Positions 1,579 to 56,853 are shown, counted from the first letter of the stretch. The stretch is 64,000 bases of DNA from Bacilli bacterium (GCA_017398945.1 JAFQES010000027.1:771-64770); one strand, 5' to 3'. Numbers and translations are program-made. The notes: a model not told the origin generated them from the sequence alone.

Positions 1579-1599
1579 ACAAAAAAACCCATAAGGGTT
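1579..1599 (-). terminator. Rho-independent terminator after the amidase gene
   Basis: On the minus strand the hairpin AACCC-ttat-GGGTT overlaps the stop codon and is followed by a run of 7 T. Confidence 0.5.
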
Positions 1600-2546
1600 A
1601 TTTTTTAGGAACTAATAGTTTTTGTCCAATACTTAGTACACTTGTTGATAAGTTATTAGTATTTATAAGATTACTAACAGTTGTACCATAAATTCTAGCT
1701 ATATTATATAAAGTATCGCCACTTTTTACTGTATATGTTTCTAAATCAGATTCTTTACCGGTTGGGATTTTTAATACTTGACCTATTGATAATAAATTAG
1801 ATGTAAGTCCATTAGCTTGCTTTAATTCGTTTACTGAAACACCATACAACTTACTAATAGCATATAAGTTATCGCCGTTTTTTACGATATATTGGTTTGT
1901 AGAATCATCTTGTTGCGGACTTTTAGAAATATACAACACCTGACCTATTGATAAATTATTGGATGTTAGATTATTAAGTTTTTTCAAGTTATCAACAGTA
2001 GTATTATAATTAGCTGCTATTTTATATAAAGTGTCGCCACTTTTTACTGTATAGGTTATATCTTCTCCTTCGGTAACATTTGTTTCTCCAGTTGGTAAAT
2101 ATAGAACTTGACCTATAGATAAGGAATTGGAAGTTAAATTATTTAATTCTTTTAATTCATTTACAGAAGTATTATACTTTTTAGCAAGATTCCATAAAGT
2201 ATCGCCACTTTTAACTACATGCACTTTAGCATCAGTACTTGGAACATAACTAACACCTAAGTATTGGGCAACGGCACTAACTACTGCCTCAGCATATTTT
2301 CGCCAATTATTTTTTAAATCTTCTGCATCAGAAGCATTATCTGCAAATCCATACTCAACTATGATACTCTCATTATTTGCTGTATCTCTTAAAATAAAGT
2401 AATAATCTTGAGCAGGATCACTTGGTAATCTTCTCTGATAATACTTACGGACAGTCTGGCCAGCTTTTTCTAACTCAGAAGCTATCATTCTTGATAAAGT
2501 ACTATTATTACGTAATGCATAGATTACTTCCGCACCTTCGCCGCCT
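1598..2546 (-). pseudogene. 3' segment of a split N-acetylmuramoyl-L-alanine amidase gene (end of the Amidase_3 domain plus four LysM repeats)
   Basis: Track ORF 1598..2488. The same frame stays open upstream to 2546 and reads GGEGAEVIYALRNNSTLSR-MIASELEKAGQ. There are four repeats of the type YTVKSGDTLYxIAxxYxxxVxxLxxLNNLxSNxLSIGQxL (LysM). There is no start codon context or RBS for the complete domain. Confidence 0.8.
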
Positions 2547-2562
2547 GGTGATAGTCATTGTG
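2538..2562. repeat. Element/host junction on the C-terminal side of the amidase gene (att-like)
   Basis: The plus strand reads tcgccgcct (2538-2546, one copy of a 9-nt direct repeat) followed by ggtgatagtcattgtg (2547-2562). The latter is inverted relative to 13851-13866. Confidence 0.7.
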
Positions 2563-2570
2563 TGGTTAAT

Positions 2571-3350
2571 TTATGGAACTACAGTGTAAGTTATAGTTAT
2601 TAAACCATCATAATCTTTATACAAATGATATTCTGCATCTGACTTATAATATAATGTTTTATGAATTTTACCATATTGTTTATCTTCAATTTTTATTTTA
2701 AAATGATTACTACTTGTCCATTCACCTTTTGACACACAATAACCATCTGATAATTTATATAATAATTTTTGAGTATTTGGAGCAATTATATAAACAGAAA
2801 TTTCTATCTCATCTCCATATCTAAATAGTTCTTTTAAATGTGCTGATTTATTTTTATAAATTTTACCATTTATATTAATAGAATCATATTCAGGAAAATA
2901 AGTGGACTTTTTTTCTATATCGCCTCTAAATTTCATAATTCCATTTTTTATATCACCAATATATCCAACTAATAGGTGTTTCTGGTAATCTAATAAATCT
3001 CTATTATGTGCATTCGGATTTCTAAAACTTTCTAATTGTGATAATTGATGTTCAATTATTTTTTTCTCACCAAAACAATTTTTAAATATATCCCAATTCT
3101 TTATTATAATTGTTTTTAAATCATAAAAATCAGAATAATAAATTTTTCTATTTTCAATTGATTGTCCTTTTAATCTTTTTCCTTCCTCTAACATTCTGTT
3201 ATTCCAAACTTCTAATCGTTCTTCCGTTACTCCTAAATGTTTTTCCCAATCATTACCATATTGATTTTTTAATATATACATAATATTATTTCGTAAAAAA
3301 TTTTCTATATCTCTCAATGATTTATCAACATCTATTTTTTCTTCAACCAT
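2571..3350 (-). CDS. Swt1-like HEPN domain protein with a beta-rich C-terminal domain of unknown function
   Basis: 259 aa. Motif LSQLESFRNPNAHNRDLLDYQ (R-x4-H) preceded by DWEKHLG and the YYSDFYDLKTII pattern typical of Swt1-type HEPN. Last gene of the AbiEi-like operon. Confidence 0.6.
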   Translation of the reverse strand: MVEEKIDVDKSLRDIENFLRNNIMYILKNQYGNDWEKHLGVTEERLEVWNNRMLEEGKRLKGQSIENRKIYYSDFYDLKTIIIKNWDIFKNCFGEKKIIEHQLSQLESFRNPNAHNRDLLDYQKHLLVGYIGDIKNGIMKFRGDIEKKSTYFPEYDSININGKIYKNKSAHLKELFRYGDEIEISVYIIAPNTQKLLYKLSDGYCVSKGEWTSSNHFKIKIEDKQYGKIHKTLYYKSDAEYHLYKDYDGLITITYTVVP

Positions 3351-3385
3351 AGCTTCCTCCTAATACATGTTTTCTAGTACAATAT

Positions 3386-4240
3386 TTACTTTGACGTTTC
3401 TATTTGTTTTTTATCTTTATATTCATAATTTAATCTATTTTGTTTAGTTACAATAGACTCCCCTAGATTTCTTTCTATATCTTCTCTTGCAACTTTTGCT
3501 GCATGTCCACCCATTTTAGCAACTTCTTTATTTTGTTCTAAACCTTGTGGTCTATGTTTTTCAGCAAGTCTTTTTGTAGTTTCTTCTGACAAATCAGTTA
3601 ATATTATTTCAATGTTATCCATATTATCTCTTAATGACTCTTTACGAAGACCTTTATATTGTTTATATTCTTTAGCTGTCATACCAGACCATTCTTTATA
3701 GATTTCATTAGTTAGTATAGCATATTCTTTACCTTCAGTTATACCATTTTCTTGCCAAATATCAGTTAATTCTTTTCTATCTTGAATACCTTTTAACCTT
3801 TTAGCAATCCATTTTTCATCATAACCTTTAGCACGATATATATCTATTGCCCTTTGAGCAGCAAGTGATGGGTCAAATACCTCGTCTATTCTTTCACTTC
3901 CTAATTTAGCTAACCATTGCTTTATTGGTTCTGCATTTTTACTAGGGATAGACTCAATTATTCTAAACATTCCTTCAATATCAACAACATCTGTTAATCT
4001 ATATTTACCATCCCCTGCTTTTAATTTCAACTGGTGACAATTTGTCACCGTTTCATTACCTTCTTCTTTTAATCGTTGTTTTAATTTATTCCAATATTTT
4101 CTACCATCTTTACTTTCTGATATTACTCCAACTATATCAACAACACTAATATAATATTTTTCTTCTTCTTTGTCCCACACAGTTCTTATTGTTTCATTAT
4201 TAAAAATTTTATTAATTAAATGCATTTTATCCTGATTCAT
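3386..4240 (-). CDS. Bro-N domain / DinD-like (DNA-damage-inducible protein D-like) protein
   Basis: 284 aa. The N-terminus FNNETIRTVWDKEEEKYYISVVDIVGVI is Bro-N-like. The remainder resembles DinD/antirepressor-type proteins as far as I recall them. Confidence 0.5.
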   Translation of the reverse strand: MNQDKMHLINKIFNNETIRTVWDKEEEKYYISVVDIVGVISESKDGRKYWNKLKQRLKEEGNETVTNCHQLKLKAGDGKYRLTDVVDIEGMFRIIESIPSKNAEPIKQWLAKLGSERIDEVFDPSLAAQRAIDIYRAKGYDEKWIAKRLKGIQDRKELTDIWQENGITEGKEYAILTNEIYKEWSGMTAKEYKQYKGLRKESLRDNMDNIEIILTDLSEETTKRLAEKHRPQGLEQNKEVAKMGGHAAKVAREDIERNLGESIVTKQNRLNYEYKDKKQIETSK

Positions 4241-4250
4241 TTATAACCTC

Positions 4251-4466
4251 CTACATCATTTCAAATTCAGATAATTCTATTATATCTTCAAGATTTCCTA
4301 CTCTTCTAAGATAATCTAAACCACCATCAACAGCTATACTTTTACAAGAACACCATTTAAAATCATGAACATGTTTTGACTCAATAATATCTTTACATTT
4401 TTTGCATTGTATTTTATTTACTAATATCTTTTTATCAGATAAATCCTTTGTTTTTTCACTACTCAT
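4251..4466 (-). CDS. Small zinc-ribbon protein
   Basis: 71 aa with CKKC...H.HDFKWCSC. Its start overlaps the stop of the upstream AbiEi-like gene by 8 nt, which suggests translational coupling. Confidence 0.5.
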   Translation of the reverse strand: MSSEKTKDLSDKKILVNKIQCKKCKDIIESKHVHDFKWCSCKSIAVDGGLDYLRRVGNLEDIIELSEFEMM

Positions 4467-5085
4467 ACATCATACCTACATAATCCATTACAACTTCTTT
4501 AATACCTAATTTTTCTGCATACAAAGATAGTTTAACAAGATCTTTATCCTTTCTTTTTATATATTCTTTAACACTATGTTTAATAAGTTCTAAATCCATT
4601 CTATTTTTAGATCTAATGATATCACATATACATCTTTCTATATCATATACTTTTACTTTATTACCCATAGGTGTTTCTATTTCAGTAAGACCCAGTTCAT
4701 AAATATCATTATCAACATAAAAGACATTATGCTTTCTTAAATGAACACTATTATAACTTCTTTTTACCGTTATATCATATACATTATTTGGAGCTTTTAT
4801 AGATAAACCATGAAAATATAAAGCTGTCATATGAGAATAGATTACATTCGGCATACTTAACCCAAAAACATAATAATTATCTTCAATTTTATTTGTATCA
4901 ATATAAATACCGGATGCTACTTTTTCTATAATCCCTTTTCCCTGCATAATCGAAAGATACATTCTATGTATATCAAACATATCAAGTTCTTTTGAAGTAA
5001 TATATCCATTATTGTTTTTCATAAGTTCTTCAATAATTTCAATATTACTTTTATCTTGAAACTCTTTTATAGTTAATTTTTCCAT
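4459..5085 (-). CDS. AbiEi-family antitoxin-like transcriptional regulator
   Basis: 208 aa. NGYITSKELDMFDIHRMYLSIMQGKGIIEKVASGIYI (wHTH), IYSHMTALYFHGLS and VYDIERCICDIIR match the AbiEi pattern. Confidence 0.7.
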   Translation of the reverse strand: MEKLTIKEFQDKSNIEIIEELMKNNNGYITSKELDMFDIHRMYLSIMQGKGIIEKVASGIYIDTNKIEDNYYVFGLSMPNVIYSHMTALYFHGLSIKAPNNVYDITVKRSYNSVHLRKHNVFYVDNDIYELGLTEIETPMGNKVKVYDIERCICDIIRSKNRMDLELIKHSVKEYIKRKDKDLVKLSLYAEKLGIKEVVMDYVGMMYE

Positions 5086-5114
5086 ATCATACCTCTTTTG
5101 ACTTTTCTACTGAA

Positions 5115-5142
5115 ATTATACCATAATCAGTAATTTTGTCAA
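5115..5142 (-). promoter_or_regulatory. Sigma-A type promoter of the AbiEi-like operon
   Basis: The minus strand reads TTGACA (5142-5137), a 16-nt spacer ending in TGG, then TATAAT (5120-5115), an extended -10. It lies about 30 nt upstream of the ATG at 5085. Confidence 0.6.
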
Positions 5143-5166
5143 GTGATTTAGTAGCATTTATTTATT

Positions 5167-5503
5167 CTCGACAGCTTGTCGGGATTTTTAACTTCGTGCC
5201 AACTTAGCACGAAGTAATATTAATATAAGTGTTGCAACTTCTGACCAAGTTGAACACAAGTTAAAACCTAACTTGTGGCCACGTCGTCCACAAGTAAATT
5301 TAACCTTGTAGCAATTTGCGACGAAGTTATAACTTCCGACCATGCTGGTCGGAGGTTGACTTCGTATCTAATCGGTATGAAGTTAATTAGCTTCTGCACA
5401 AAGTGTGCTGAAGTACTTTTATTTTTAACTTCTACACAGAGTGTGTCGAAGTTAAACTTCCCGACAGACTGTCGCGAAGTTAAATTTGTGATATATACAA
5501 GTT
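5167..5503 (+). repeat. Tandem array of about 11 imperfect hairpins with a conserved stem base (ACTTC...GAAGT) and covarying upper stems. It may be a structured ncRNA.
   Basis: Units at 5167-5183, 5191-5215, 5237-5261 (weak), 5271-5295, 5302-5328, 5331-5357, 5359-5383, 5391-5413, 5427-5453, 5455-5481 and 5483-5503. Upper stems differ but stay complementary (GTGC/GCAC, TGTGG/CCACA, CGACC/GGTCG, TGCAC/GTGCT, TACACA/TGTGT, CCGACAG/CTGTCG). Confidence 0.6.
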
Positions 5504-5518
5504 TTAATTTTATGTACT

Positions 5519-5545
5519 ATTCTGTGCATATTGCACAGAATTTTT
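5519..5545 (+). terminator. Rho-independent terminator on the + strand, closing the hairpin array
   Basis: Perfect 10-bp stem attctgtgca / tgcacagaat with a 3-nt loop, followed by TTTT(T) on the + strand. No T-run follows it on the minus strand. Confidence 0.6.
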
Positions 5546-7118
5546 AAATCATGAATCTATAGAAAATTTCAATATTCTTATCTTTATCAATTTCAATTTT
5601 ATCAATTAATGTTTGTAAAAGTTCTCTAGTAGGTTTCTTTATATCAATTAATTTTCTTATTTTCTTTTCGTATTCTTCTAATTCTTTGGTTTTAATATTT
5701 TCTTTTTTAGTATTTTTATACTTTTCTAAATCCAACTGAGCTTTATTTAAAAGCCTTTCCGTTTCCTGAGATAATCTTTTATAAGTAACATCTGATATAT
5801 TACCTCTAAATTTATCTTCATATAACATATCTATTTTTGATATATATTCTTTTATCTTATTTTCTAAATATCTTATCTTTTCTTTATTATCTTCCTTTTT
5901 ACTATTTTTATCTGCTATTTCTTTTGATAATAACTTAGAATCAATCTGCTTAATATAATTTTTACAAGTTGTTCTTACTACTTCAAGTAATGCCTCTTCT
6001 AATTTATCATAAGGCATAAAATGTGGTTCACATAATCTTCTTCTTGGATCTCTTGCATATTTATTACAATTAATAGTCCAATAATCGTGATTCTTTCGGT
6101 AAGTAATAGTTAATGCATTTCCACATTCTTTACAAAATAGCAAATTTTCAAATAATCTTTTTTCTCTATTACTAACACTTACATTAGTTCTTTTAACATT
6201 ACCTTGTATTCTTTCAAAAGTTAATTTATCAACTAATGGTTCATGTGTTCCAGGAACTATGTCCCAATTACTTTTTGGAAGAGCTTTTTTCTTTTTAGAT
6301 TTATAATTTACTTTAGTCTGAGTACTTTGAACCATATCACCTGTATACATTCTATTTTTTAGTATCTTCTTAACTGATGATATAGTCCATTGTTCGTTAT
6401 ATCTCATTTTAGAATTAGGATTTTTTCGTTTTAAACTACTTGGTGTTTTAATTTTATTATCATTTAAATATGAAGTTATATCAGATAATCCAACACCATT
6501 AGCAGCCATTTCAAATATTTTTTTAACTACTGGCGCATATTCTGGGTCTGGTATTAAATGTCCTTTTTCTTCTGGGTCTTTCATATATCCATAACTTGGA
6601 TTACTTCCAATAAACTTTCCTTTCTTTCTTTTATCATTTAAAACACTTCTAATTTTAATAGAGTTTTGCCTACTATAATAATCATTACAAGCAATTATAA
6701 ATGTTGATGAATCATTACTTGCTTGATTAATTGCACTATCATAGTTTTCTTGTAATGATATAAATCTTATATTATTTTCTGGAAAAAAGTTTTCAATATA
6801 ATATCCTGTCATAACATGATCTCTACCTAATCTTGATAAATCTTTTACTATAACTAAATTTACCATTTTATTTTTTATATCTTCAATCATTTTAGTAAAT
6901 CCAGGTCTTTCAAAATTAGTACCAGAATATCCATCATCAACATATTCTCCAACAAATATAAATCCTTTTTCTTTTACAAAGTTCATTAATAAATTTCTTT
7001 GATTAGTAATACTTTCACTTTCCGATTCATAAGATTTTCCTTCATCTGCTTCAGATAATCTTATATATATGACCGCTCTATAAATATTATTTGGCATTTG
7101 CATTAAACCGTTATACAT
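5544..7118 (-). CDS. Large serine recombinase
   Basis: 524 aa. The N-terminal resolvase domain has AVIYIRLSEADE (catalytic Ser) and VIVKDLSRLGRD. There is a recombinase domain, a zinc ribbon (CKECGNAL...NCNKY...C) and a long C-terminal coiled coil. Confidence 0.9.
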   Translation of the reverse strand: MYNGLMQMPNNIYRAVIYIRLSEADEGKSYESESESITNQRNLLMNFVKEKGFIFVGEYVDDGYSGTNFERPGFTKMIEDIKNKMVNLVIVKDLSRLGRDHVMTGYYIENFFPENNIRFISLQENYDSAINQASNDSSTFIIACNDYYSRQNSIKIRSVLNDKRKKGKFIGSNPSYGYMKDPEEKGHLIPDPEYAPVVKKIFEMAANGVGLSDITSYLNDNKIKTPSSLKRKNPNSKMRYNEQWTISSVKKILKNRMYTGDMVQSTQTKVNYKSKKKKALPKSNWDIVPGTHEPLVDKLTFERIQGNVKRTNVSVSNREKRLFENLLFCKECGNALTITYRKNHDYWTINCNKYARDPRRRLCEPHFMPYDKLEEALLEVVRTTCKNYIKQIDSKLLSKEIADKNSKKEDNKEKIRYLENKIKEYISKIDMLYEDKFRGNISDVTYKRLSQETERLLNKAQLDLEKYKNTKKENIKTKELEEYEKKIRKLIDIKKPTRELLQTLIDKIEIDKDKNIEIFYRFMI

Positions 7119-7195
7119 TTACTACTCCTTTCTTTTTTGTATAACAATCAAAGCCATTTAAAGTATAATACTTTATTTTCATAATTACGAATGTG

Positions 7196-7294
7196 CTAAT
7201 TTTTAATTAGTACACTTTTTATATATTTATTTAACAAATCCACCAAATTAAGAGCATTATCATCTTTTCTAAAAGTTTCCGTAATTTTAAACAT
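7196..7294 (-). CDS. Possible 32-aa ORF upstream of the recombinase
   Basis: My own translation gives MFKITETFRKDDNALNLVDLLNKYIKSVLIKN, preceded by GAGGTGG. It is too short to be sure. Confidence 0.2.
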   Translation of the reverse strand: MFKITETFRKDDNALNLVDLLNKYIKSVLIKN

Positions 7295-7339
7295 AAGCCA
7301 CCTCATAAAATTTTATGAGTGTCTTTTTCATTTTATTTC

Positions 7340-7855
7340 TTATTCCTCCTCGTATATATCACTTAATAATTTTTTTAATTCTTCTTGTTCTTCAATAGTT
7401 GCTTCATTTTTAGGTATTAACTTACCATGCCAGTATTCATTACCATCTTCATCTTTATAATAAATACTATCTTCTTTTTTATTTAATTTATTATTATATT
7501 GTTTAAAGTTTAGTTTATAGCCTGTATTAAAATTATCTTTAATACTTTTTAATTTTAAATTTAAGACTTCTGATAATTTAATTATACGCTTAGAATTATT
7601 TGTACTCGTATTATCGTATTCAGTCTTAATATAACCAAAGGTGGCTAAATTACTTATACTTTTTGATATAGTTACCTGTGTTACATTATAAATATCACAA
7701 AAATATCTATTAGTAGCCCAACAATAACCATTTTTCTTACAAAGACTTATTATATGAATTAATAATAATCTTTCTAAAAATGTTAATCTATCATCTCTTA
7801 GTATGGATTTTAAAATAAATACATTTATGAATTCTTCTTTATCCATAATAATCAA
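7340..7855 (-). CDS. Winged-helix/HTH protein (phage or plasmid replication- or regulator-like)
   Basis: 171 aa. YCWATNRYFCDIYNVTQVTISKSISNLATFGYIK is a typical HTH segment. Confidence 0.5.
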   Translation of the reverse strand: MIIMDKEEFINVFILKSILRDDRLTFLERLLLIHIISLCKKNGYCWATNRYFCDIYNVTQVTISKSISNLATFGYIKTEYDNTSTNNSKRIIKLSEVLNLKLKSIKDNFNTGYKLNFKQYNNKLNKKEDSIYYKDEDGNEYWHGKLIPKNEATIEEQEELKKLLSDIYEEE

Positions 7856-7949
7856 TATATAAGATATATCTTGAGATAATAAAAGTGCACTTTTAAATAT
7901 TATTTTCCCTAGGTGCTTTCATCTTATAACAAATTAAAATAAAAAGAAA

Positions 7950-7988
7950 TTGTACAAAACATACAAAAGGAGTACATTTCTGTACTCC
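7950..7988 (-). terminator. Rho-independent terminator after the RloC-like gene
   Basis: The minus strand reads GGAGTACA-gaaa-TGTACTCC (7988-7969), followed by TTTTGTATGTTTTG. Confidence 0.6.
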
Positions 7989-7995
7989 CATAATT

Positions 7996-10122
7996 TCATA
8001 ATTTATTCAGCCTATTAATTATATCTTCTTTCTCTCGTTCTAATATCACTTCGGATATATCAATAGCAGGTTGAAAAATATTCATATTTCCCTCAAAATG
8101 ATTGAATTCATTAAGCAATGTCTTTTTTGAAAAAAAGAATATTCTATTTTTATTATTTTCTATTGTATTTTCCTTAAAACATTGATAAATAATACTCGAA
8201 AGTTGATCATACTTAGTAGTATTAATATTATATTTATTGACTAATACTTTTTCAGTTATCAATCTTAAATACAAGTATACTAAATTATTACATAACACTT
8301 TATTCAAAAGAGGATAACTATTCTTATCTATAATTTCATCAAGATTATTAATATCAATACTTAAAATATCATTAACGCTTATTATATATGGATTAGATAG
8401 TTGATTTTTAAATAAATCATTGTAAATTTGACCTAAATCAATTCGAACATTTTCATATCCATGCATTAATTTCGTTAATTTATCTTTAACTTCATTTTCT
8501 CCTATATACTTAACATATCCTCTCATAAATGGGATTAAAGAATATATATACAATTTTTCATCTTTTATAAATGATAAAATTGTATTTGAACGAATAAACG
8601 CTAAAAGATCTGGAATTGAAATTAATATCTTCTTTTCATTTTCATTAATCAAAATAAATCCATTTTTTTGACCTTCAAAGTTATTAAATAAATATATGTT
8701 AAATTCCCTATTAGTTTGAAAGCCAACTAATTTTATTAGATCCATATTATGTGTTAGCAATAATACTTTCTTATTATCAAGAAATTTAATTATTGCATAT
8801 ACAAGCTTATTTTTAAAAATGGAATCAAAACTAGAAATAGGGTCGTCTATTACAATTATTTCATTATCTACATTTTTAGCTTTTAACAACTCAAAAGTTA
8901 ATGAAATAAAATTCTGTTCACCTGAACTTAGTTTTAGGTTTTCTCTTTCTACTCCTATTATATCTTCAGAATCGAGTGTAATAACTATTTTATTATTCGC
9001 TCTCTGTAGTTTAATTGTCTTATTAATGTTTTTTTCTATAAATTCTTCTATAAACATTAAATCTTCATCTGTGATATTTAAGTCTCTAGATAACATTTCT
9101 TTATATTCAAGATATTTTTTTATAAATTCATCATTTAATGACGTTACTAATGTATTAGTTAGTATATTTTTATATAATAAGATATAATAATCTATTTCTT
9201 TAATTAAATTAACAACGCCTTCTACATTACCTGTTGATATCGCATTTTTTAAAATGTATTTTATATTAAACGGATCGTCTTCTCCAATTTTTTCAATAAT
9301 ATTATTTAATATTTTTTGTGTTCCCTCATCAAGGCTACTTACTATATTATCTTTACTATTTTTTTTATCAATTAATAATTGATTTACATTTATTTCTGTT
9401 TCGCAAACTATACAATTATTTAAATCTTTATATTTATTTAAAATATTAATAGCATCATCACATTGTTCAATTTTAAAAAAATCTTTAATCATTTTTATAT
9501 CAGATATTTTTTTTACTTGCATAATAATATCATAATTATTATCTGTAATGATATATTTAAATTTCCTTTTATCATATTCTTCAATGTTTATATATTTAAT
9601 ATTTTGAATTAAATTATAAAATTCATCTATATCAACATCAACAGATTTTGCTCTAGTATTTATAATTTTTTTCAAAATATTAGTTAAACCAGCATTAATC
9701 CACGATAGTTTATTATCAGTGACTTTTGATAAATTTAAATCATTTTTATATAATAACTTTATATCTTTATAAACATCATCAAATTTATCATCTATCCATT
9801 CTTTAAGTTCATATTCTTTAGCAATATTATCACCTAATAAAAAATCTTTGGCCTTGCCTTTGATAATATTTCTACTATTTTGATCATTTATAACATGAAA
9901 CAAATTACAATTATTGCTGGAATATTCTTTATCATCATAATTTAATATAAATTCACCTTTATCATCCAGCACTTTACAAAGACTACTTTTTCCAACTCCG
10001 TTAGGTGCATATAAGATATTAATATTTGTATTATCAAAATTTATTACATTGTTATCTGTCATACTATTAAAATCTTCACAAAAGATATTTTCTTTTTGTA
10101 TTTTTAAAAATTCTAATTTCAT
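7996..10122 (-). CDS. RloC/PrrC-like anticodon-nuclease family ATPase (AAA_13 type)
   Basis: 708 aa. Walker A is YAPNGVGKSS and Walker B is IIVIDDPISSFD. An internal CIVC (CxxC, zinc-hook-like) lies in a long helical insert. The C-terminus has LRLITEK (R-x3-E) and LLNEFNHF (His), arranged as in the PrrC/RloC nuclease domain. Confidence 0.6.
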   Translation of the reverse strand: MKLEFLKIQKENIFCEDFNSMTDNNVINFDNTNINILYAPNGVGKSSLCKVLDDKGEFILNYDDKEYSSNNCNLFHVINDQNSRNIIKGKAKDFLLGDNIAKEYELKEWIDDKFDDVYKDIKLLYKNDLNLSKVTDNKLSWINAGLTNILKKIINTRAKSVDVDIDEFYNLIQNIKYINIEEYDKRKFKYIITDNNYDIIMQVKKISDIKMIKDFFKIEQCDDAINILNKYKDLNNCIVCETEINVNQLLIDKKNSKDNIVSSLDEGTQKILNNIIEKIGEDDPFNIKYILKNAISTGNVEGVVNLIKEIDYYILLYKNILTNTLVTSLNDEFIKKYLEYKEMLSRDLNITDEDLMFIEEFIEKNINKTIKLQRANNKIVITLDSEDIIGVERENLKLSSGEQNFISLTFELLKAKNVDNEIIVIDDPISSFDSIFKNKLVYAIIKFLDNKKVLLLTHNMDLIKLVGFQTNREFNIYLFNNFEGQKNGFILINENEKKILISIPDLLAFIRSNTILSFIKDEKLYIYSLIPFMRGYVKYIGENEVKDKLTKLMHGYENVRIDLGQIYNDLFKNQLSNPYIISVNDILSIDINNLDEIIDKNSYPLLNKVLCNNLVYLYLRLITEKVLVNKYNINTTKYDQLSSIIYQCFKENTIENNKNRIFFFSKKTLLNEFNHFEGNMNIFQPAIDISEVILEREKEDIINRLNKL

Positions 10123-10200
10123 TAACTACCTCCCACTACTAAAAAAAGCGCAATACAAAACTTAATAAATTTTAAGCCTGTACTAGCGCTTTACTAATAT

Positions 10201-10983
10201 TTATTTTATAATTACATTAAATACGTCATTTTTATCATCATAATTCCATATTGATTGTGCTTCTTCAAAATCAACATTTGATATAAAATCTTTATAATAT
10301 TTTGTAACTCCACCAAAATAAGACTTATCCGAACTAATATTATATTTTTTATAAATTTCACCATTAATAGATAAATTAAATGATGATTTATCCTTAATTA
10401 ATTCCTTGTATTCACTTGGAATTCTCAATATCCTTGCTCTTACATCATTTTTAGTGACTCTTCTCTCAATAGTTTTAATATCTCGTTTTTCTTCTAATTT
10501 TTCATCATTAACAAAAAGATCATTTAATTTATTAATACTAAAATAATATTTGACATCGAACATCATATCACCATGAGATTTACAAAAGTCTATTAGTTGA
10601 CTACCATTAATTAAAGTAATTGGTTGATTAGTATCATATGCTTCTTCTATTGCACCTTTAGTGTAATCACTAGTAGTAATAAAAATTTTTCTAACAGACA
10701 TATCTGTTTTAGAACCTCTAAAATCTCTTATATCACTAGGACCAACTTTATTATTTATTCCGTAACATTTTGCCTGAACAACATAATCAATAGTATTTAA
10801 GTTTAGTTGCTCTATTTCTTTTTTATTACACTTTAAATCTATACCACCATCACCACGTCTTTGAGTAACTTGTATATCATCAAAGTCTAACCACTTTAAA
10901 AATATTTTGCAAAAATTTTCAAATTTATATTTATCTTCATCAAAATATTTTATAAATTGTTCTCTTAATTCCTTATCACTCAT
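10201..10983 (-). CDS. Mrr-like restriction endonuclease domain protein with an unknown C-terminal domain
   Basis: 260 aa. TQRRGDGGIDLKC...YVVQAKCY...DIRDFRG matches the Mrr catalytic core pattern. Confidence 0.6.
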   Translation of the reverse strand: MSDKELREQFIKYFDEDKYKFENFCKIFLKWLDFDDIQVTQRRGDGGIDLKCNKKEIEQLNLNTIDYVVQAKCYGINNKVGPSDIRDFRGSKTDMSVRKIFITTSDYTKGAIEEAYDTNQPITLINGSQLIDFCKSHGDMMFDVKYYFSINKLNDLFVNDEKLEEKRDIKTIERRVTKNDVRARILRIPSEYKELIKDKSSFNLSINGEIYKKYNISSDKSYFGGVTKYYKDFISNVDFEEAQSIWNYDDKNDVFNVIIK

Positions 10984-10994
10984 ACTTTATACTC

Positions 10995-11807
10995 CTAATT
11001 AAAATATGCTTTTTTTATTCTCTCCAGTGCATCTAGAATATATTTTGAACATATTTTATATTCATCAATTATGATGTCATATCCCTTTTCATCATCACAT
11101 ACAAAGTTCCAATATTCTTTTCCAATCAATAATTCATCATCACTAAAATATTGTTTCACTCTCTCTTGACGCCATTCATTTCCTTCACCAAACATATTAT
11201 AAGCAGTAGCTAAATAAATTTTTACACTTTCTTCATCATTCTCCAATGCATTTCTCAAAATAAAATATTCATCTAATAAAGCTTCTTTCTCACTTTTTGC
11301 TTTTTTAATATCTAAATCGCCACCGGCTTTTAATTCTATGATAAAATGTTCTCTCGTTGTAGGGTTATAAAAATGATTATCGGTTACATGTTTTTTCTTA
11401 AAACTATCTATATTCTCTGGCTTATATGCTTGTAAGTTAGTATAATCTTGTGTTTTAGGTTTTACATGCTTATCATACTCATTCATAATATTTGATTTCC
11501 TTTGTATTTGTTCTGGTAGTAAATATGAAGAAATATCTTCTAATACAACCTCATATGAAATATCCGCAATATCATTAGATAATTTTTCTAAAATCTTACC
11601 AAAACTAGAATCAAATGATCTACAAAATGCAGAATAAAACATAAACTCATTACCCAATTGTGAAACAAATGCATTATTTTTTTTAGCATTAATTACACCT
11701 GTTGGATCAGATAATTCTTTCATATATCTTTTTTCAAATTTTCTAACAAAATCTTCTATATTATTTCTAACTTTTTCTCTTATTTTTTGTTCCTTAATAG
11801 CATCCAT
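10995..11807 (-). CDS. Putative type II restriction endonuclease, partner of the adjacent methyltransferase
   Basis: 270 aa. It lies 10 nt downstream of the MTase gene. FIIELKAGGDLD provides a candidate (D/E)xK motif. I cannot identify the family with confidence. Confidence 0.45.
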   Translation of the reverse strand: MDAIKEQKIREKVRNNIEDFVRKFEKRYMKELSDPTGVINAKKNNAFVSQLGNEFMFYSAFCRSFDSSFGKILEKLSNDIADISYEVVLEDISSYLLPEQIQRKSNIMNEYDKHVKPKTQDYTNLQAYKPENIDSFKKKHVTDNHFYNPTTREHFIIELKAGGDLDIKKAKSEKEALLDEYFILRNALENDEESVKIYLATAYNMFGEGNEWRQERVKQYFSDDELLIGKEYWNFVCDDEKGYDIIIDEYKICSKYILDALERIKKAYFN

Positions 11808-11817
11808 TCAAAACCTC

Positions 11818-12966
11818 CTAAATTTCATAGTTTGTTATTATTAAATGTTCAACGTCTTTATCATTTCTATTTTTAATACTAACCAAATATTTTTTATCAA
11901 AAGATTTAATATATAATCCATCAACATTATACAAATTATAAATAAAATCTGTATTTTTTATAATCAACATAAACTTTGCTTTAGTTTTTTTTAAAAAATT
12001 AGCCAATCTAATTTGATCATTTTTATCAAACTCGTTTTTTGCATATGTTGAAAATTCAGTATCATAAGGGGGATCTAAAAATATAAAATCATTACTTGTT
12101 AACTTTAATTTATTACAAAAATCCTCAAAATCCAAATTATATATTTTTGTATTTTTCATATAATTTTTTAATTTCGTAGAATTTAAATTATTTATTTTTT
12201 TATTAAAATCTTTTCTATTATAACTTATACCACCATAAGGTACATTAAATTTGCCATTAGCATTATATCTAAACATTGATGCATAACAATATTCTCTTAT
12301 AAAATAAAATATCGCACAGTAAAATTCATCTTCAATTTCTAATTCATAACGATTATTATATAAGTATCTAAAATGCATATAATATGAACTTTTAAAAGCA
12401 CATTCTAAGTTTTCTAGAATATTAGCTTCAGACATTTTTCCTCTGTTTAATTCTATTTTTCGCATTCTCTCAATTTTTGATAATAAGTTTTTTTTTATTT
12501 CCGCTAAAAAATTATCAATTTTAATATTAAAATGTTCTGATAATAATCCGTTAAATTCTTCCGAATGTTCCAACACAAATTCATAAATTTTATCACTATA
12601 ATTAATTTTTATGCGTTTATTAACCTTATCTTTTTTAACTTGCTTAGAATAATTATTATATAAAGCTATAAGTTGTTTTGAATTATTTTCAACGATTTTT
12701 TCTAATAACGTCCAATTCTTATTTATTTCTCTTAGTTTTTTTATAAATCTTTGATTGCCATCTTTAACCATGTTGTAAAGAAGTATTAATTCATCAGATT
12801 TATCGTTTATTATGCTCTCATTACAATTAATATTTAAATATACAGAACCACCGCCTACAAAAGGTTCTATATATCTATCAAATTTGGCAGGTAGATTTGA
12901 TAATATAATTGGCAATTCTTTTTCTTTACCACCAGCCCATTTTATAAAAGATTTCTCATAAGCCAT
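11818..12966 (-). CDS. Dam-family (D12 class) N6-adenine DNA methyltransferase
   Basis: 382 aa. FIKWAGGKEKELP, EPFVGGGSVYLN (SAM binding) and FLDPPYD (catalytic DPPY). Confidence 0.85.
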   Translation of the reverse strand: MAYEKSFIKWAGGKEKELPIILSNLPAKFDRYIEPFVGGGSVYLNINCNESIINDKSDELILLYNMVKDGNQRFIKKLREINKNWTLLEKIVENNSKQLIALYNNYSKQVKKDKVNKRIKINYSDKIYEFVLEHSEEFNGLLSEHFNIKIDNFLAEIKKNLLSKIERMRKIELNRGKMSEANILENLECAFKSSYYMHFRYLYNNRYELEIEDEFYCAIFYFIREYCYASMFRYNANGKFNVPYGGISYNRKDFNKKINNLNSTKLKNYMKNTKIYNLDFEDFCNKLKLTSNDFIFLDPPYDTEFSTYAKNEFDKNDQIRLANFLKKTKAKFMLIIKNTDFIYNLYNVDGLYIKSFDKKYLVSIKNRNDKDVEHLIITNYEI

Positions 12967-13144
12967 ACATTCTACCTCCTAACTGCAAAAGTACCATCTA
13001 TAAATAATTATAACATAATATTACATTTTTTTTAAGGGTTTTGGGAATTTCCCATAAAAGAATTTTGTACGGGAGTACAAATTCAGTGCTGGCTAGACAA
13101 TAAACATACTCCTACAAGTAAAAACACTACCATTTTTGATAGTG

Positions 13145-13453
13145 TTAATTTTTCTGATAATATCTTTTTAATCTTAATGGATTACTATTTTTTACTACTA
13201 AATTATATTTAATTTTTAATATTTCTTTTACCCTAGGTATAAGTTTATCCATATCACATCTACAGTTAAATACATCTATTGCCGAGTTAATATGATTCCT
13301 TAGAGGACAATCTGATAAGCAATGTCTACTATATCCATTTGCTAAATAGAATGCTACTAAATCTGGAATAACATAATTATTTAAATAATCATTAACATTG
13401 TTATAGAAAGGTAAATATATTTCTTCAAATTCTTTATCAGTTATATCACACAT
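13145..13453 (-). CDS. Hypothetical protein
   Basis: 102 aa, Cys-rich. It overlaps the upstream ORF by 8 nt. A terminator-like hairpin AACACTATCA-aaaa-TGGTAGTGTT plus T-run overlaps its stop (about 13122-13146). Confidence 0.4.
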   Translation of the reverse strand: MCDITDKEFEEIYLPFYNNVNDYLNNYVIPDLVAFYLANGYSRHCLSDCPLRNHINSAIDVFNCRCDMDKLIPRVKEILKIKYNLVVKNSNPLRLKRYYQKN

Positions 13454-13794
13454 AGATATACTCCTTTAAAATAATTTCTTCTACTCTATTTTTTATATTA
13501 TTCATTTTACCTATCCATAACATTTGATTACTACTTTTTAAATCTTCATTAATATTTTCTTTTTCAGCAAGTTCTTTAATTAAACTTTGTTCTTTCTCCA
13601 TAAGAGTAATATCAATATCATGTAAATACTCATTCAACTTATCTTTCATAATTAGTTCAGTATATAAACCTTTTTTGTTCTTCTTTAAATACTTTAATTT
13701 AAGTAATCCATACTTTCATATTAAATCTTTCTTTATCTTCTAATTTTAAATCCGGCAATAAATAATCACCAGTTCTAGTGTAACTAACGTTCAT
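13446..13794 (-). pseudogene. TnpV-like gene with one frameshift
   Basis: Frame A (13794..13699) reads MNVSYTRTGDYLLPDLKLEDKERFNMKVWIT-stop. A second frame continues LLKLKYLKKNKKGLYTELI-MKDKLNEYLHDID...QMLWIGKMNNIKNRVEEIILKEYIY (track ORF 13446..13649). Together they match the TnpV pattern of Tn4451-type serine-recombinase elements, from memory: GDYLLPNL...W..MNNI..RAEEI...E.IY. Confidence 0.55.
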
Positions 13795-13850
13795 AACTAT
13801 TTCCTCATTTCTTTCTATTTATTTTGGCTTTAATTGTTATACATTCGTTA

Positions 13851-13870
13851 CACAATGACTATCGCCACCT
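13851..13870. repeat. Element/host junction on the N-terminal side of the amidase gene (att-like)
   Basis: The plus strand reads cacaatgactatc (13851-13863), inverted relative to 2550-2562. It overlaps tcgccacct (13862-13870), the second copy of the 9-nt direct repeat. Confidence 0.7.
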
Positions 13871-14148
13871 CCCGCATTTATGTGATTAGAAATTAATAAT
13901 ACATCATTTCCACTACCATAAAAACTTTTTGCTTTATTAACCCTTTGTGAAGGTGTTAACGTCTCGTCAGTAGTTCTTGTCATACTAACATCCAATCCTA
14001 AAGCTTTTAATCGATCATAGATATAGTCACTTATCAACAAATTATATTCCTTTTCAACAATTCCATTTCCACTGGTTCCTGGATCATTTCCACCATGACC
14101 AGCATCAATTACTATTTTTTTAGGAGCTCTTTCATTCATGTTTATCAC
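13862..14148 (-). pseudogene. 5' segment of the split N-acetylmuramoyl-L-alanine amidase gene (first 95 aa of Amidase_3)
   Basis: Track ORF 13837..14148 reads MINMNERAPKKIVIDAGHGGNDPGTSGNG...LISNHINAGGG, then 8 element-derived codons (DSHCVTNV) and a stop. There is no signal peptide. Confidence 0.8.
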
Positions 14149-14225
14149 CTAATATAAAATATGTATTATTTAGCTTTTGGTGAAAAAAGATAACATCTAT
14201 GTTATAATTTCTCTGGTGATAAAAA

Positions 14226-19740: not shown

Positions 19741-19938
19741 TATAACAATCACACTTCCCACATATTTGTTCAATAGCAATTTCTGCAGATATATAATTTA
19801 TCAAAGTGCTATTCTTTTCAACTTTACTTTTTTATAATTCTATAATCTTCAGTTGCTAATTTATTTATCCGTTATATTAATTATATCACTAATAAGACAA
19901 ATAACAAAATATAGTTATTTTAAATGCTAAAACAACTT

Positions 19939-19995
19939 CCCATAAATGAGCTTTTTGAAACATTGAAATAAGTAAACCTTAACGTTTTGTTAATT
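19939..19995. repeat. Copy A of a 57-bp direct repeat (degenerate duplicate of the rpsI 3' end and terminator)
   Basis: cccataaatgagctttttgaaacattgaaataagtaaACcttaacgttttgTTaatt differs from copy B at 4 positions. Confidence 0.8.
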
Positions 19996-20076
19996 AGCTT
20001 TCCCTTACTTAATGGACTTCTCAGCCTACTTGTAAACTACTTAAACTGACTACACCAGAGTCTAAGGCAATATTAA

Positions 20077-21610: not shown

Positions 21611-21640
21611 CAAAAAAGCAAAAATATTACAATTTTTGCT
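21611..21640 (-). terminator. Rho-independent terminator after the HerA-like gene
   Basis: The minus strand reads AGCAAAAAT-tgtaat-ATTTTTGCT followed by TTTTTTG. It overlaps the stop codon. Confidence 0.55.
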
Positions 21641-23405
21641 AATTATTATACCAAATTCCTAAAATATCACAGCTTGAACTCATTGGTAATGGATTTGGCA
21701 TAGCCATTCTGATTAATGTTGGTAACTTGAATGCAGTACCAAACAAAATACAATTACCCGGTTGTAATGTCTTCATTTTTTGAATTGTAGCTTCAGTTAT
21801 ATCAGGAACAACATGAGATATAAAACTTAAATCTTTAGGATGAATCATCTTAAACATTAAAAAATTTGAACATTGTGACAAGGCTGTTTCTGATAACTCT
21901 GATGGTCTTTGCGTAATTAAGCCTAATAAAACCCCATACTTTCTTCCTTCTTTAGCAATTCTATCAAATATGTTATAACCAATAATATTCACGTCATTAT
22001 CATTTTGAACATACCGATGAGCCTCTTCTAAAACAATATGAACCGGAACTGAAGCTCTAATTTCCATTCCTTTACAAAAATCATATAACATCCTTGAATA
22101 TATTTTAGCAATCATTTTAGCCAAACGATCATCAATAAAATTTATATTTATATTTAATATTTGACATTTTCTATCTCCATCATATAATAACTTTTGCATA
22201 AACTCCATTTCAGTTATATATTCTGGATATTCAAAAAATATTTTATCACTACTATTTCTTAAAGTATCTAAGTTTGTTTTTATATAATAAATATCATTAT
22301 ATAAAGTTTCATTTCTTAAAATACCCTCATCAATTAGGGCAAACTCTAAAGCATAAGCTAAATCATCTAGGGTATAAGCATAAGATTTATCTGGAGCTTT
22401 AAGAACAATATCTTCTTTTATAAGTTTACTTAAAAACTCGTTAACTAAATCAATTGCTCTAATCTTACCAGAATCATCAATCAATAAACACTGTTTTAAA
22501 GGACGGACATAGCCAGGTTGCGCTACAGAAGAATCTAAATTTATTAATCTTGTATTATATTTTGTTAATACTGAAAAAAACTGATCTCTAATTTGCGATG
22601 ATGGTCTTCCACTTGTTAATATTTCTAATAATGATTTTGCAATAATACTTGTTTTATATTCTAAAACCTTTTCTTCATCTTGCGCAAAAATATCAACAAA
22701 CTTTAAAGTTTTTTCTAATACAGGTATTTGTGAAACGTTTTTTACATTTAACAATAAAGCTAAATCATCAATACCAAGTAACCATACCGGAATCTTTAAT
22801 ATATTATCAATTTGACTTTTATTTGTAGTTAATGATTTAAAAACAAAATTTGGATTACTTTGAATCAATGCTTTAAATGAAGGTTCATATTCTCCAAAAG
22901 AATCAATAACTACAAAACTAGCATTTTTTGGAAATGCTTCTTTTCTAAATAAATTTTGAATTACAGTTGCAAATCCACATGACTTTCCTGAACCACTACT
23001 TCCGACAATCGCAAAATTATGACTAAATAAGGATTGAACTTTAGCACCCACTTTAATATCGGAATAAACCATACTATTTCCTAAATACAATTCATATTTG
23101 TCCTGTTCATTTTCAATTCCAATAATTTTATTAATATATTTGGGTGAAAGTAAATTTACTTGCGCTTTAAATGAAGGCTTATTAGATACCCCATAAACAA
23201 AATTATTACTAACAAACTCTCCCACTAAGTTTACTGAAGCTACATTATTTCTAATTCCTACTACTTCACCAACGTAATTTTTATTGTTTTCACTCATAAG
23301 TACGAATACATTAATAATATTCTGAATCTCACTAGCATTGATACTTAATTCTACTTCTACTAAGTTTTCATTTATTCCAATTATTTTTCCTAGCATCACT
23401 AACAC
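21639..23405 (-). CDS. HerA-like (DUF87) P-loop ATPase
   Basis: 588 aa. Walker A is [11 protein letters not shown], Walker B is [11 protein letters not shown], followed by [18 protein letters not shown]. The N-terminus is barrel-like ([15 protein letters not shown]). Confidence 0.7.
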
Positions 23406-27835: not shown

Positions 27836-29167
27836 TTAATCGGAAAACATTTGGACCCAATAATATTGATCTGTTTTAACAAACCCAATGCCAATTTTAC
27901 CAAACTCTGTTCTAATCATATTTTCGTAATGACCTTGAGAATCTTTCCAACCTTGCGAAACGTCTGCAGGTGTTTTGTAGCCAGAAGCAATATTTTCTCC
28001 GTAAGCATATGCAATATATCCTATTTCATCTAAAACGGTAAAACAGCTTGAACCATTAGGTCTATCATGAGAAAACTCGCCACTGTAACCTAACTCTAAT
28101 GCTCTAATTGTCGCAGCAACACTTAAATTTTTATCTAACACTAAAGCTGGCTTTCCCACTTCAGCACGATACTCATTTACTTTTGATAAAACTTGATTTA
28201 TTTCATTTGAATACTTGCTTACAAGACTTGTTGCTTCTGTTTTTAATTCATCAGTGGTAGCATTAAATCCTCTTTTATCATAACTAACTGAAGAACTGGA
28301 ACTTAATTTTTCTTTTGTACCATCATAATAAACTTTATATTTAGTTTTAGTTGTTGTTGTTAAGACCGACCCGTATTTTACTTTTTCTTCAGTAGTAACC
28401 TCTTGTTTAACTTCATAAGTTACTTCTGTTTTAGTATCCTCTTTTGGATTTGAATCCTGCGTTTTATTTTCCTCTTTAGAAAATGTATCTTTGATTTCCG
28501 TATTCTCATTTCCTGTATTCTTACTTTCTTCTTTAGAAGAAGTGTTAACTTTTTTAATAATTAATTTAGTTTCTTTAGAAATTTCATTTCCATATTTATC
28601 ACTAGCTATTATTTCTATATCATATGAACCCGATTTAGTATAGCTAGTCATTTTATCATCCGAAAATTTTAAAATACAATCTTCTTGGCTATTATCACTA
28701 CAATTATCTATAAAATCATTCAAATTATAACTTTCTTTTTCCTTAATCGTAACTTCTTTTAACTTCAACTTTGGAGAAGTCTCATCAATTACTAATAATT
28801 TACTAGAATATTCTTTGTCTTTTATTTTAAGACGAACATCATATTCTCCTACTTCAGACGCAAATTTTTTGCCATCAATTGTTTCTGTAGGTAATCCTAT
28901 AAAATCCTCATCGATTAATATTTTAGGATCTTCATTAAAAAATTTATAACCACCGGGAACTTCATCGTATACATTAATTGTTAAACTTTCCTTTACACTT
29001 AAAGCGTCTTCAATCTTTTTATTGTTTTCTGTTTTAGGAATATCTTTTTTATCTTTCCAAACAAAATAACCTACTGTTCCACTTCCTCCTACTACCAGCG
29101 TAATTGCACATATAATAATTATTAATTTCTTACTTATTTTTATCTTTTTCTTCCCACTCTTTTTCAT
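27836..29167 (-). CDS. Membrane-anchored protein with a C-terminal CAP/SCP (YkwD-like) domain
   Basis: 443 aa. N-terminal TM segment, a Lys/Glu/Thr-rich linker, and the C-terminus VNEYRAEVGKPAL...GENIA...GWKDSQGHYENM. Confidence 0.6.
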   Translation of the reverse strand: MKKSGKKKIKISKKLIIIICAITLVVGGSGTVGYFVWKDKKDIPKTENNKKIEDALSVKESLTINVYDEVPGGYKFFNEDPKILIDEDFIGLPTETIDGKKFASEVGEYDVRLKIKDKEYSSKLLVIDETSPKLKLKEVTIKEKESYNLNDFIDNCSDNSQEDCILKFSDDKMTSYTKSGSYDIEIIASDKYGNEISKETKLIIKKVNTSSKEESKNTGNENTEIKDTFSKEENKTQDSNPKEDTKTEVTYEVKQEVTTEEKVKYGSVLTTTTKTKYKVYYDGTKEKLSSSSSVSYDKRGFNATTDELKTEATSLVSKYSNEINQVLSKVNEYRAEVGKPALVLDKNLSVAATIRALELGYSGEFSHDRPNGSSCFTVLDEIGYIAYAYGENIASGYKTPADVSQGWKDSQGHYENMIRTEFGKIGIGFVKTDQYYWVQMFSD

Positions 29168-49846: not shown

Positions 49847-49859
49847 TTAACTCACCACC

Positions 49860-51779: not shown

Positions 51780-51783
51780 ACTC

Positions 51784-52869: not shown

Positions 52870-52960
52870 AAATTGCCCCCTTTTACGTCAATATAATAAA
52901 ATAATAGGTATACCCGTACACCTATACCTATCATTAATTATAACACAAATTTAAGATTTA

Positions 52961-53413: not shown

Positions 53414-53489
53414 ATTACTTCACCCCCTTACAAATAAATTGTTTTCTATTAAACTAAAAAAAAACAACAAAATTTGTTGCTTTTTGTAA

Positions 53490-54611: not shown

Positions 54612-54747
54612 TCCTTCTTTCTTATTTATATTATTAATTATTATTATAATAGTGTTAGTAATGTGGATAAGTCATTTTTCTTAGGTATAACCTAGGGTGA
54701 AAACCAATATTCTATGTTTATAAGTAGTTGATAACTTTTAACATTAT
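54612..54747. promoter_or_regulatory. dnaA-dnaN intergenic region with DnaA boxes (second half of a bipartite oriC)
   Basis: A perfect box TGTGGATAA (54662-54670, the reverse complement of TTATCCACA) and a near-box agTTGATAA at about 54728-54737. The surroundings are AT-rich. Confidence 0.6.
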
Positions 54748-56100: not shown

Positions 56101-56182
56101 TCCCCACCCCCACATCTAATTTTGACAATTAAATTTTCTCACAATTGTGTTAACAAAACAAGTAAAAGAAGCAACCTTTAAG

Positions 56183-56815: not shown

Positions 56816-56853
56816 CCACTTTAATGTGGTTTTTTTTCTATAAGGTGAAAAAA

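Follow-up and report, generated by a model that had tools for sequence, protein, structure and literature searches.

A site-specific serine-recombinase island that splits a putative mother-cell amidase gene in uncultured Bacilli

The split gene

We analysed a 64,000-nt stretch of DNA (the window) from a Bacilli bacterium (GCA_017398945.1 JAFQES010000027.1:771-64770), in which a minus-strand gene for a LysM-type Amidase_3 cell-wall amidase is split by an 11,324-bp element that encodes a large serine recombinase (LSR) and candidate anti-phage defence systems. A reading made from the sequence alone (the sequence-only reading) had likened this arrangement to the sporulation gene-intervening elements, which include skin (sigK), SPbeta (spsM), vfbin (spoVFB), vrin (spoVR), gin (gerE) and yin (yabG) (PMC4191935, PMC5595907, PMC10747680). 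Positions below are counted from the first letter of the window. The two junctions comprise the following features.

13871..14139, minus strand: 5' fragment of the amidase gene, residues 1 to about 90 of Amidase_3, with DAGHGG and the SNHINA histidine
13862-13870, minus strand: attL core, AGGTGGCGA in gene sense
13850..13867, minus strand: P' arm of attL, TGGCGATAGTCATTGTGT
2546..2563, minus strand: P arm of attR, ACACAATGACTATCACCA
2538-2546, minus strand: attR core, AGGCGGCGA in gene sense
1598..2543, minus strand: 3' fragment of the amidase gene, the rest of Amidase_3 (GEGAEVIY...VEYGF, with the catalytic Glu region) and four LysM repeats

The open reading frame (ORF) at 13837..14148 (minus strand) encodes the first 95 or so residues of Amidase_3 (KKIVIDAGHGG...LISNHINAGGG), followed by 8 foreign codons, which are element DNA, and a stop at 13837. 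The ATG at 14139, which is used by all orthologues, is likely to be the true start. At the other junction, the frame 5' of the ORF at 1598..2488 (minus strand) stays open to 2546 and encodes GGEGAEVIYALRNNSTLSR-MIASELEKAGQ..., then the four LysM repeats. Removing one copy of the repeat and everything between the copies yields a 1,227-nt ORF of 408 aa from a GTG, or 405 aa from the ATG at 14139. The reconstituted protein matches positions 1-173 of 174 of Pfam Amidase_3 in a single stretch, with metal-ligand and catalytic segments complete, and carries 4 LysM domains. Thus, the element interrupts a host coding sequence, and its precise excision, performed in silico only, returns an intact ORF.

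When the protein is aligned to the solved amidase domain of Cwp6, the break falls after the SxHxNA histidine segment and before the Glu segments that follow it, which leaves neither half complete. Both halves are free of stops and frameshifts, and they are 97% identical to the intact allele described below. The sequence-only reading is borne out here on the two ORFs with their foreign codons and open frame, on the position of the break, and on the scarless in-frame fusion, whose 408 aa hold for the GTG start.

Empty site and attachment sites

The uninterrupted allele of about 408 aa that the sequence-only reading anticipated in related genomes exists in two forms. One is a 405-aa uninterrupted protein (P0001, 94% identity) whose junction, NAGGGEGAEVIY, is exactly as predicted. 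The other is an uninterrupted allele (97% protein identity) in 'Bacilli bacterium RGIG3081' (L002), a metagenome-assembled genome that serves as a GTDB species representative. The flanks of L002 and the window align at 92-97% nucleotide identity, with 4255-10278 of L002 corresponding to 19861-13862 of the window and 10270-12815 to 2546-1. The two alignments overlap by exactly the 9-bp repeat; therefore, the element of the window is a precise insertion of 11,324 bp, and its empty site is represented within the same species. The intact P0001 junction and the L002 alignments agree that the fragments abut at the predicted join.

The empty site reads AATGC(G/A)GGA-GG-CGGCGAAGGTGCGG. Because the empty site has GGAGGCGGCGAA, the single mismatch of the repeat can be assigned: T belongs to the element (P' arm, attL) and C to the host (B' arm, attR). 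Strand exchange is therefore confined to the AGG just 5' of the mismatch, and within this AGG the crossover most likely took place at the GG (13868-13869). The attP reconstructed from the two junctions, ACACAATGACTATCACCA-GG-TGGCGATAGTCATTGTGT, is a 38-bp near-palindrome of two 18-nt arms with one mismatch and a central GG. Dyad arms around a central dinucleotide are the geometry expected for an LSR that makes a 2-bp staggered cut, and a 2-bp target is cited in a paper on the TnpX family (PMC3158075). In its domains and in this attP symmetry the recombinase is of the integrase type, and the att sites combine a short direct repeat with inverted arms. The 9-nt repeat with 1 mismatch and the near-palindromic circular joint had thus been read correctly, but the arms are 18 nt with one mismatch rather than 13 nt, and the joint is 38 bp rather than about 36 bp.

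A family of elements with one target

Relatives of the LSR fall into more than 100 database clusters at 70-98% identity, nearly all of 524-529 aa. We inspected 21 loci, with LSR relatives at 98, 94, 89, 76 and 72% identity (overall range 70-100%). In all 21, the same codons of amidase orthologues are used (NAGG/GEGAEV, the slash marking the break), and wherever a contig includes the relevant end, the element is flanked by an N-terminal Amidase_3 fragment of 96-107 aa and a C-terminal fragment bearing LysM. With the same mark, the family attL reads ...CAC ATA AAT GCA GGA GG/TGGCGAT(A/G)GTCA(TT/AA)GTGT and the family attR ACAC(AA/TT)TGAC(C/T)ATCnnn(A/G)GG/(T/C)GG(C/A)GA... In-silico excision at loci holding both ends gives complete ORFs of 345-470 aa, and the exceptions are explained by further elements.

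The family keeps a backbone of TnpV, orf99, HTH_36, orf32 and the LSR, often with a Bro-N protein, while the cargo between these genes is freely exchanged. Among the cargoes are an EcoRI-type methylase with GmrSD and OLD/UvrD (Gabija-like); Dcm with NOV_C; a type IIG restriction-modification (R-M) system; MazG/HEPN/SLFN-helicase/nSTAND; Fic; and HamA with a helicase.

In one case, L033 (2911-18806; also L035 and L036), the amidase gene is in three pieces, separated by two unrelated LSR elements. An 11.3-kb element of the family cuts it at NAGG/GDGAEV, and a minimal 3,214-bp element with a 521-aa LSR cuts it in the first LysM, at YTVKKGD/TLWD. Once both are excised in silico, a 451-aa ORF results, and the collection contains it as an intact protein.

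Some loci show further structure at the att sites. In L032 (15321-15420), another of the exceptions, a P'-like arm of a different sequence (TGGCGAGTTTACTTACC) comes after the P arm and GG, and a second, different island with HamA and a helicase, Fic and Dcm stands in tandem. L038 has two copies of the beginning of the amidase 3' part, about 2 kb from each other (13841 and 15811), behind a different arm. Contig ends near the att sites in L036 and L039, considered as possible coexisting alleles, are explained by a second element or a duplicated segment and were not used.

Mobility and polymorphism

LSRs that are 100% identical are found in hosts that share only 53-63% identity in the amidase catalytic domain. 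For example, the elements of L029 and L027 differ at 2 of 13,942 nt, and the amidases of their hosts are 60% identical. The reconstituted proteins of L027, L029, L045 and L033 occur as exact intact sequences in the public collection; the exact 405-aa sequence reconstituted from the window was not found there as an intact protein. The 454-aa intact protein of L027 is on 123 contigs, and the same 90% clusters hold many split fragments, such as a 319-aa C-terminal fragment on 237 contigs, both counts being only indicative and taken among 15 listed members per cluster.

Intact loci of the L027 host share the synteny of the window: rplM-rpsI ... a cwlD-like gene, Abi_2, HtrA, the amidase and Hydrolase_2. 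Their flanks meet precisely at the join that had been predicted and share 98.5-99.96% identity with those of split loci, and in a 2.7-kb flank comparison the split strains are not each other's nearest relatives. Near-identical elements across hosts, together with intact and split alleles within species, therefore demonstrate recent interspecies transfer and repeated gain or loss within species. On these comparisons, the element is an active site-specific mobile island and not a fixed, domesticated one; it inserts precisely, and if the reaction ran backwards, the gene would be recovered scarlessly.

The amidase as a probable mother-cell gene

Directly upstream of the amidase lies one further feature.

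14155..14181, minus strand: sigma-K-type promoter motif, ACC-N16-CATATTTTA, 4 nt upstream of the ribosome-binding site (RBS) AGGTGA

The sigma-K consensus has AC at the -35 position and a -10 shared with sigma-E (PMC3789822). CATAnnnTA stands 4-8 nt upstream of the RBS in 13 of 13 distinct orthologues, whose upstream regions have otherwise diverged, and in 10 of the 13 an AC lies 16-17 nt further upstream of this -10. By comparison, just one of the 56 other ORFs in the window has CATAnnnTA at -45..-8. The full motif occurs nine times in 128 kb (both strands), and only the amidase copy precedes an RBS and ATG.

Sigma-K-dependent amidases have been tied to mother-cell lysis, namely CwlC and CwlH in B. 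subtilis and CD1898 and CD2184 in C. difficile (PMC3789822). The amidase of the window has no signal peptide, as had been claimed, since its catalytic domain begins at residue 8. The lack of a signal peptide together with terminal wall-binding repeats is the layout of CwlC. In relatives, a gene for a SleB/CwlJ-type Hydrolase_2 protein adjoins the amidase, and the window itself has a YabG gene whose product passes the NCBIfam equivalog cutoff (290 vs 270 bits), as well as CwlD-like and SpoVT-like genes that both score below their cutoffs. We consider this sound, if indirect, evidence that the amidase is most likely a late, CwlC-like mother-cell lysin under sigma-K in a spore-forming host. The likeness to skin and SPbeta, seen in the anatomy, is thus further supported by the promoter motif, the missing signal peptide and YabG, but it does not extend to a fixed, domesticated intervening element.

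Upstream of yabG (27861-27900, minus strand), a mother-cell-type -10-like sequence, CATATATTT, lies a few bases before the RBS, with no AC at -35. Such an arrangement would fit sporulation promoters with short leaders in this host.

Anatomy and cargo of the element

The G+C content is 26.9% in the window and 24.1% in the element. The conserved backbone consists of tnpV-orf99 at the left end, HTH_36-orf32-LSR in the middle and the Bro-N protein on the right, and the two slots between these parts hold interchangeable anti-phage cargo. The listed ORFs are all co-oriented with the amidase. From left to right in gene sense, the features are as follows.

13825..13843, minus strand: 19-nt motif TGTATAACAATTAAAGCCA between attL and tnpV, conserved in all family members
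13446..13794, minus strand: tnpV (Pfam TnpV, E = 5e-18), frameshifted; relatives encode 116 aa
13145..13453, minus strand: orf99, conserved backbone gene, 102 aa here, Cys-rich, overlapping the tnpV stop codon
13123..13146, minus strand: terminator-like hairpin closing the left-end module amiN'-tnpV-orf99
10995..12966, minus strand: cargo type II R-M system, D12 N6-adenine methyltransferase (11818-12966) and TdeIII-type endonuclease (10995-11807)
10201-10983, minus strand: cargo Mrr_cat nuclease, which with the AAA_13 ATPase fits PADLOC candidates PDC-S02 and PDC-S06
7996-10122, minus strand: cargo AAA_13 ATPase, PADLOC candidate-system match (PDC-S02/PDC-S06, with Mrr_cat)
7340..7855, minus strand: HTH_36 backbone protein, like the N-terminal part of phage and plasmid replication initiators
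7302-7319: 18-bp palindrome CTCATAAAATTTTATGAG, preceding orf32
7196..7294, minus strand: orf32, backbone, 32 aa (MFKITETFRKDDNALNLVDLLNKYIKSVLIKN), directly upstream of the LSR gene
7138..7156, minus strand: the 19-nt motif in inverted orientation, TGGCTTTGATTGTTATACA, immediately before the LSR RBS
5544..7118, minus strand: LSR, 524 aa, with Resolvase, Recombinase and Zn_ribbon_recom domains; DUF4368 weak, below cutoff
5150..5545, minus strand: about 8 hairpins arrayed in the spacer from the LSR stop to the AbiEi promoter
2571..5085, minus strand: right-end module of AbiEi-like, DUF7695, Bro-N and HEPN_Swt1 genes
4459-5085, minus strand: AbiEi-like gene, with a perfect sigma-70-type promoter (TTGACA-16-TGnTATAAT) at 5115-5142
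4251-4466, minus strand: DUF7695 gene, 71 aa, after the AbiEi-like gene in place of an AbiEii nucleotidyltransferase
3386-4240, minus strand: Bro-N backbone protein, PADLOC candidate PDC-S13, 383 bits
2571-3350, minus strand: HEPN_Swt1 gene, PADLOC PDC-M34B

The LSR claimed for 5544..7118 is confirmed by its domains. Its best solved relative is the TnpX catalytic domain (PDB 2mhc, E = 3e-25) and its best annotated relative is TndX of Tn5397 (34% identity), which was also all that turned up among relatives in plasmids and integrative and mobilizable elements (IMEs). By this similarity the LSR is of the TnpX/TndX type.

The TnpV-like gene had been called a remnant. The family assignment is right; the gene has its full length, yet 2 bp present in all relatives are deleted from it (AATAT--GAAAG, 13708-13725, near 13716), which shifts the frame and leaves a 67-aa C-terminal ORF. 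The deletion is probably real because it lies outside any homopolymer run. Its neighbour orf99 has no match among Pfam-type families, PADLOC, PHROGs or PDB.

The 19-nt motif, with consensus GTATAACAAT(T/C)AAAGCCA, occurs at its two places in opposite orientation in every family member. This suggests a shared regulator- or recombinase-binding site that would couple the left end to LSR expression.

Matches to Pfam-type families and to PADLOC confirm that the element is loaded with defence genes. The AbiEi-like and DUF7695 proteins may be an orphan antitoxin-like regulator or an undescribed pair. In the hairpin array, the outer stems are kept (AACTTCG...CGAAGTT) and the inner stems vary with compensating changes (RNA fold z = -12.4). 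The copy number among relatives is about 8, 5, 4 or 2, and the array is absent in two subfamilies; Rfam gave no meaningful match. Candidate roles are those of an oriT, an ori, iterons or a structured RNA.

A phage origin was considered and rejected. LSR relatives are absent from the viral collection IMG/VR, tblastn against phages gave at most 38% identity, and PHROGs recognised only integrase, Rep-like and unknown families, with no structural, packaging or lysis genes, so that the element does not qualify as a prophage or satellite. None of the element proteins, in the window or in the relatives, showed a relaxase domain, and no conjugation gene was recognised.

Possible excision during sporulation and alternative explanations

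In our preferred reading, in which we have about even confidence, a mobile defence island attaches site-specifically within the gene for a mother-cell lysin and leaves it again in the mother cell, so that the amidase is rebuilt. The TnpX/TndX-type LSR recombined the 38-bp attP with the DNA encoding the conserved NAGG/GEGAEV motif of the amidase. The element would thereby be parked in a gene needed only in the terminal mother cell, following the logic of SPbeta, gin and yin, and excision in the mother cell would rebuild the amidase while the spore keeps the island. The sequence-only reading had excision couple loss of the defence island to activation of a lytic enzyme; such a loss would touch only the terminal mother cell and not the spore lineage.

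The left end offers a possible timing device. tnpV begins 43 nt after the truncated amidase ORF, no terminator-like structure was found between the two, and behind orf99 comes the terminator-like hairpin (13146-13123). Transcripts started at the amidase promoter would therefore cross attL into tnpV-orf99, and such read-through could time excision. A bolder version takes the sigma-K promoter of the host as the clock, with tnpV-orf99 as an excision or directionality module, the 19-nt motif coupling it to the LSR, and the lysin freeing a circular element equipped with a Rep-like protein. We regard this version as unlikely; if true, it would explain how an island without transfer genes spreads between species.

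Several observations weigh against excision tied to sporulation. The attP joint, sought as a degenerate 38-nt pattern, was not found in JGI metagenome contigs or IMG/VR, which is weak evidence because the majority of carriers come from ENA and Logan assemblies. No convincing sporulation promoter was found before the LSR. A candidate sigma-E/K promoter before orf32-LSR, a conserved CATA(A/C)A(A/C)T-like element, was rejected: in the majority of family members it forms half of an 18-bp perfect palindrome overlapping the RBS, and being thus ambiguous it is not counted as evidence. The tnpV gene of the window copy is frameshifted. Recombinases of the TnpX/TndX type reportedly need no directionality factor for excision and can perform it in any cell (PMC5704250), so that excision need not be specific to a cell type. 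The candidate directionality factors TnpV, orf99 and orf32 match no known factor of this kind in sequence and structure searches. TnpV was earlier compared with lambda Xis (PMC3158075), but it has no sequence match in PDB, and its AlphaFold2 (AF2) model (predicted local distance difference test, pLDDT, 84) is all-helical without a Foldseek match, which leaves the Xis analogy unsupported. In addition, the sigma-K assignment uses the consensus of B. subtilis and C. difficile, and the host belongs to an uncultured lineage. Finally, a high frequency of split alleles is also expected if the amidase is merely dispensable.

This last point leads to the strongest alternative, to which we assign a substantial chance, if less than an even one: a plain IME-type insertion that knocked out a dispensable, redundant amidase, with occasional excision for horizontal transfer unrelated to sporulation. 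The reconstituted ORF would then be a by-product of conservative serine recombination. Serine-recombinase IMEs typically integrate in and disrupt dispensable genes (PMC5704250), and the strong horizontal mobility, the repeated gain and loss, and the different elements in tandem at the same site all suit such an insertion. The type of the LSR suits it as well, TnpX alone being sufficient for excision and insertion of Tn4451 according to Lyras 2004 as cited in PMC3158075 and PMC5704250, and so do the missing LSR sporulation promoter and attP joints noted above. On the other hand, a mother-cell-type promoter in 13/13 target orthologues is unlikely for a random dispensable target, and two unrelated LSR elements converge on this amidase gene, which stays fully reconstitutable. 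Moreover, the left-end module runs in the same direction as the amidase promoter and is not separated from it by a terminator, and the gene-splitting LSR elements in sporulation genes that have been tested all excise during sporulation (PMC4191935, PMC5595907, PMC10747680).

A narrower alternative, under which the family is or was excisable, concerns the window copy alone, which may be locked in because the tnpV deletion or other lesions disabled excision, leaving the amidase a permanent pseudogene in this strain. It would account for the tnpV frameshift against all relatives and for the failure to find the exact 405-aa sequence intact in the collection. We nevertheless think it very unlikely, given that the LSR, orf99, orf32 and both att sites are intact, that the amidase halves are undamaged, and that TnpV has no demonstrated excision role, TnpX alone sufficing in Tn4451 according to the cited account. 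A chimeric assembly or misjoined contig can practically be dismissed, since the same architecture and junctions recur in more than 20 independent assemblies from different studies and the att arms form the expected palindrome.

Comparison with known systems

With the sporulation gene-intervening elements, the island shares an LSR element that splits a coding region, expressed in the mother cell in that class and putatively so here, a short direct repeat with inverted arms, and precise excision that restores the ORF, here in silico. Like gin, it is not a phage and carries an R-M system, and as with SPbeta and yin, some strains have it and others do not. It departs from the class in its target, a LysM Amidase_3 gene, in its TnpX/TndX-like LSR with TnpV, in its modular defence cargo, and in its spread between species. 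No amidase is among the intervened genes in PMC10747680, PMC5595907 and PMC4191935, and none was found in literature searches.

The recombinase clade (TnpX, TndX), tnpV, the 2-bp crossover and the expected circular intermediate are shared with Tn4451/Tn4453 and Tn5397. Unlike these transposons, the island has no Mob relaxase of the TnpZ kind, known oriT or resistance gene, and it uses a strict single site with a GG core (one site in 21 loci, within AGG), whereas theirs is of low specificity at GA. Its LSR is in the middle of the element, and tnpV is at the left end. Thus, despite a TnpX-type LSR and tnpV, it is not a member of the Tn4451 family, because it lacks a relaxase, is strictly site-specific and has a GG core.

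Disruptive serine-recombinase IMEs, such as those of streptococci that target rumA (PMC5704250), likewise insert site-specifically inside a conserved gene, with very short repeats and accessory cargo. The island differs from them in having no recognised relaxase, a spore-forming host and a target gene with a mother-cell-type promoter. SCC/SCCmec (staphylococcal cassette chromosome) elements (PMC11470126) are also mobilised by LSRs, carry variable defence cargo and form tandem arrays at one att site, as here in L032, L033 and L038. They use Ccr recombinases at the 3' end of rlmH, which is not disrupted, and have no link to sporulation.

Surroundings of the locus

Comparison of 19861-20071 of the window with 789-4255 of L002 reveals a second indel, on the rpsI side, where about 3.4 kb present in L002 is missing from the window. 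Beside rplM, a 588-aa protein (21639-23405, minus strand) has a weak match to the HerA anti-phage helicase (166 bits vs a cutoff of 800) and may represent a divergent ATPase of the HerA type, for defence or repair, in the core genome. The genes gyrA-gyrB-recF-dnaN-dnaA (minus strand) and mnmE-mnmG-rsmG (plus strand) in 47345-63109 place the replication origin near 56-57 kb. The amidase locus is about 40 kb from oriC and is co-oriented with replication.

Significance

If our preferred reading is true, a peptidoglycan amidase, a putative mother-cell lysin, joins sigK, spsM, spoVFB, spoVR, gerE and yabG as a split sporulation gene, in abundant, uncultured, low-GC gut Bacilli rather than in a model Bacillus or Clostridium. 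The family is very common in human and animal gut metagenomes and crosses species with near-identical sequence, carrying a changing repertoire of R-M, GmrSD, Gabija-like OLD+UvrD, Hachiman-like HamA, AbiE-like, HEPN and nSTAND systems. It also provides a well-defined LSR site pair, a 38-bp attP and an attB inside a conserved motif. The mobility of an anti-phage defence island would thereby be linked to a sporulation locus, and the family poses the question of how an island without recognisable transfer genes moves between species.

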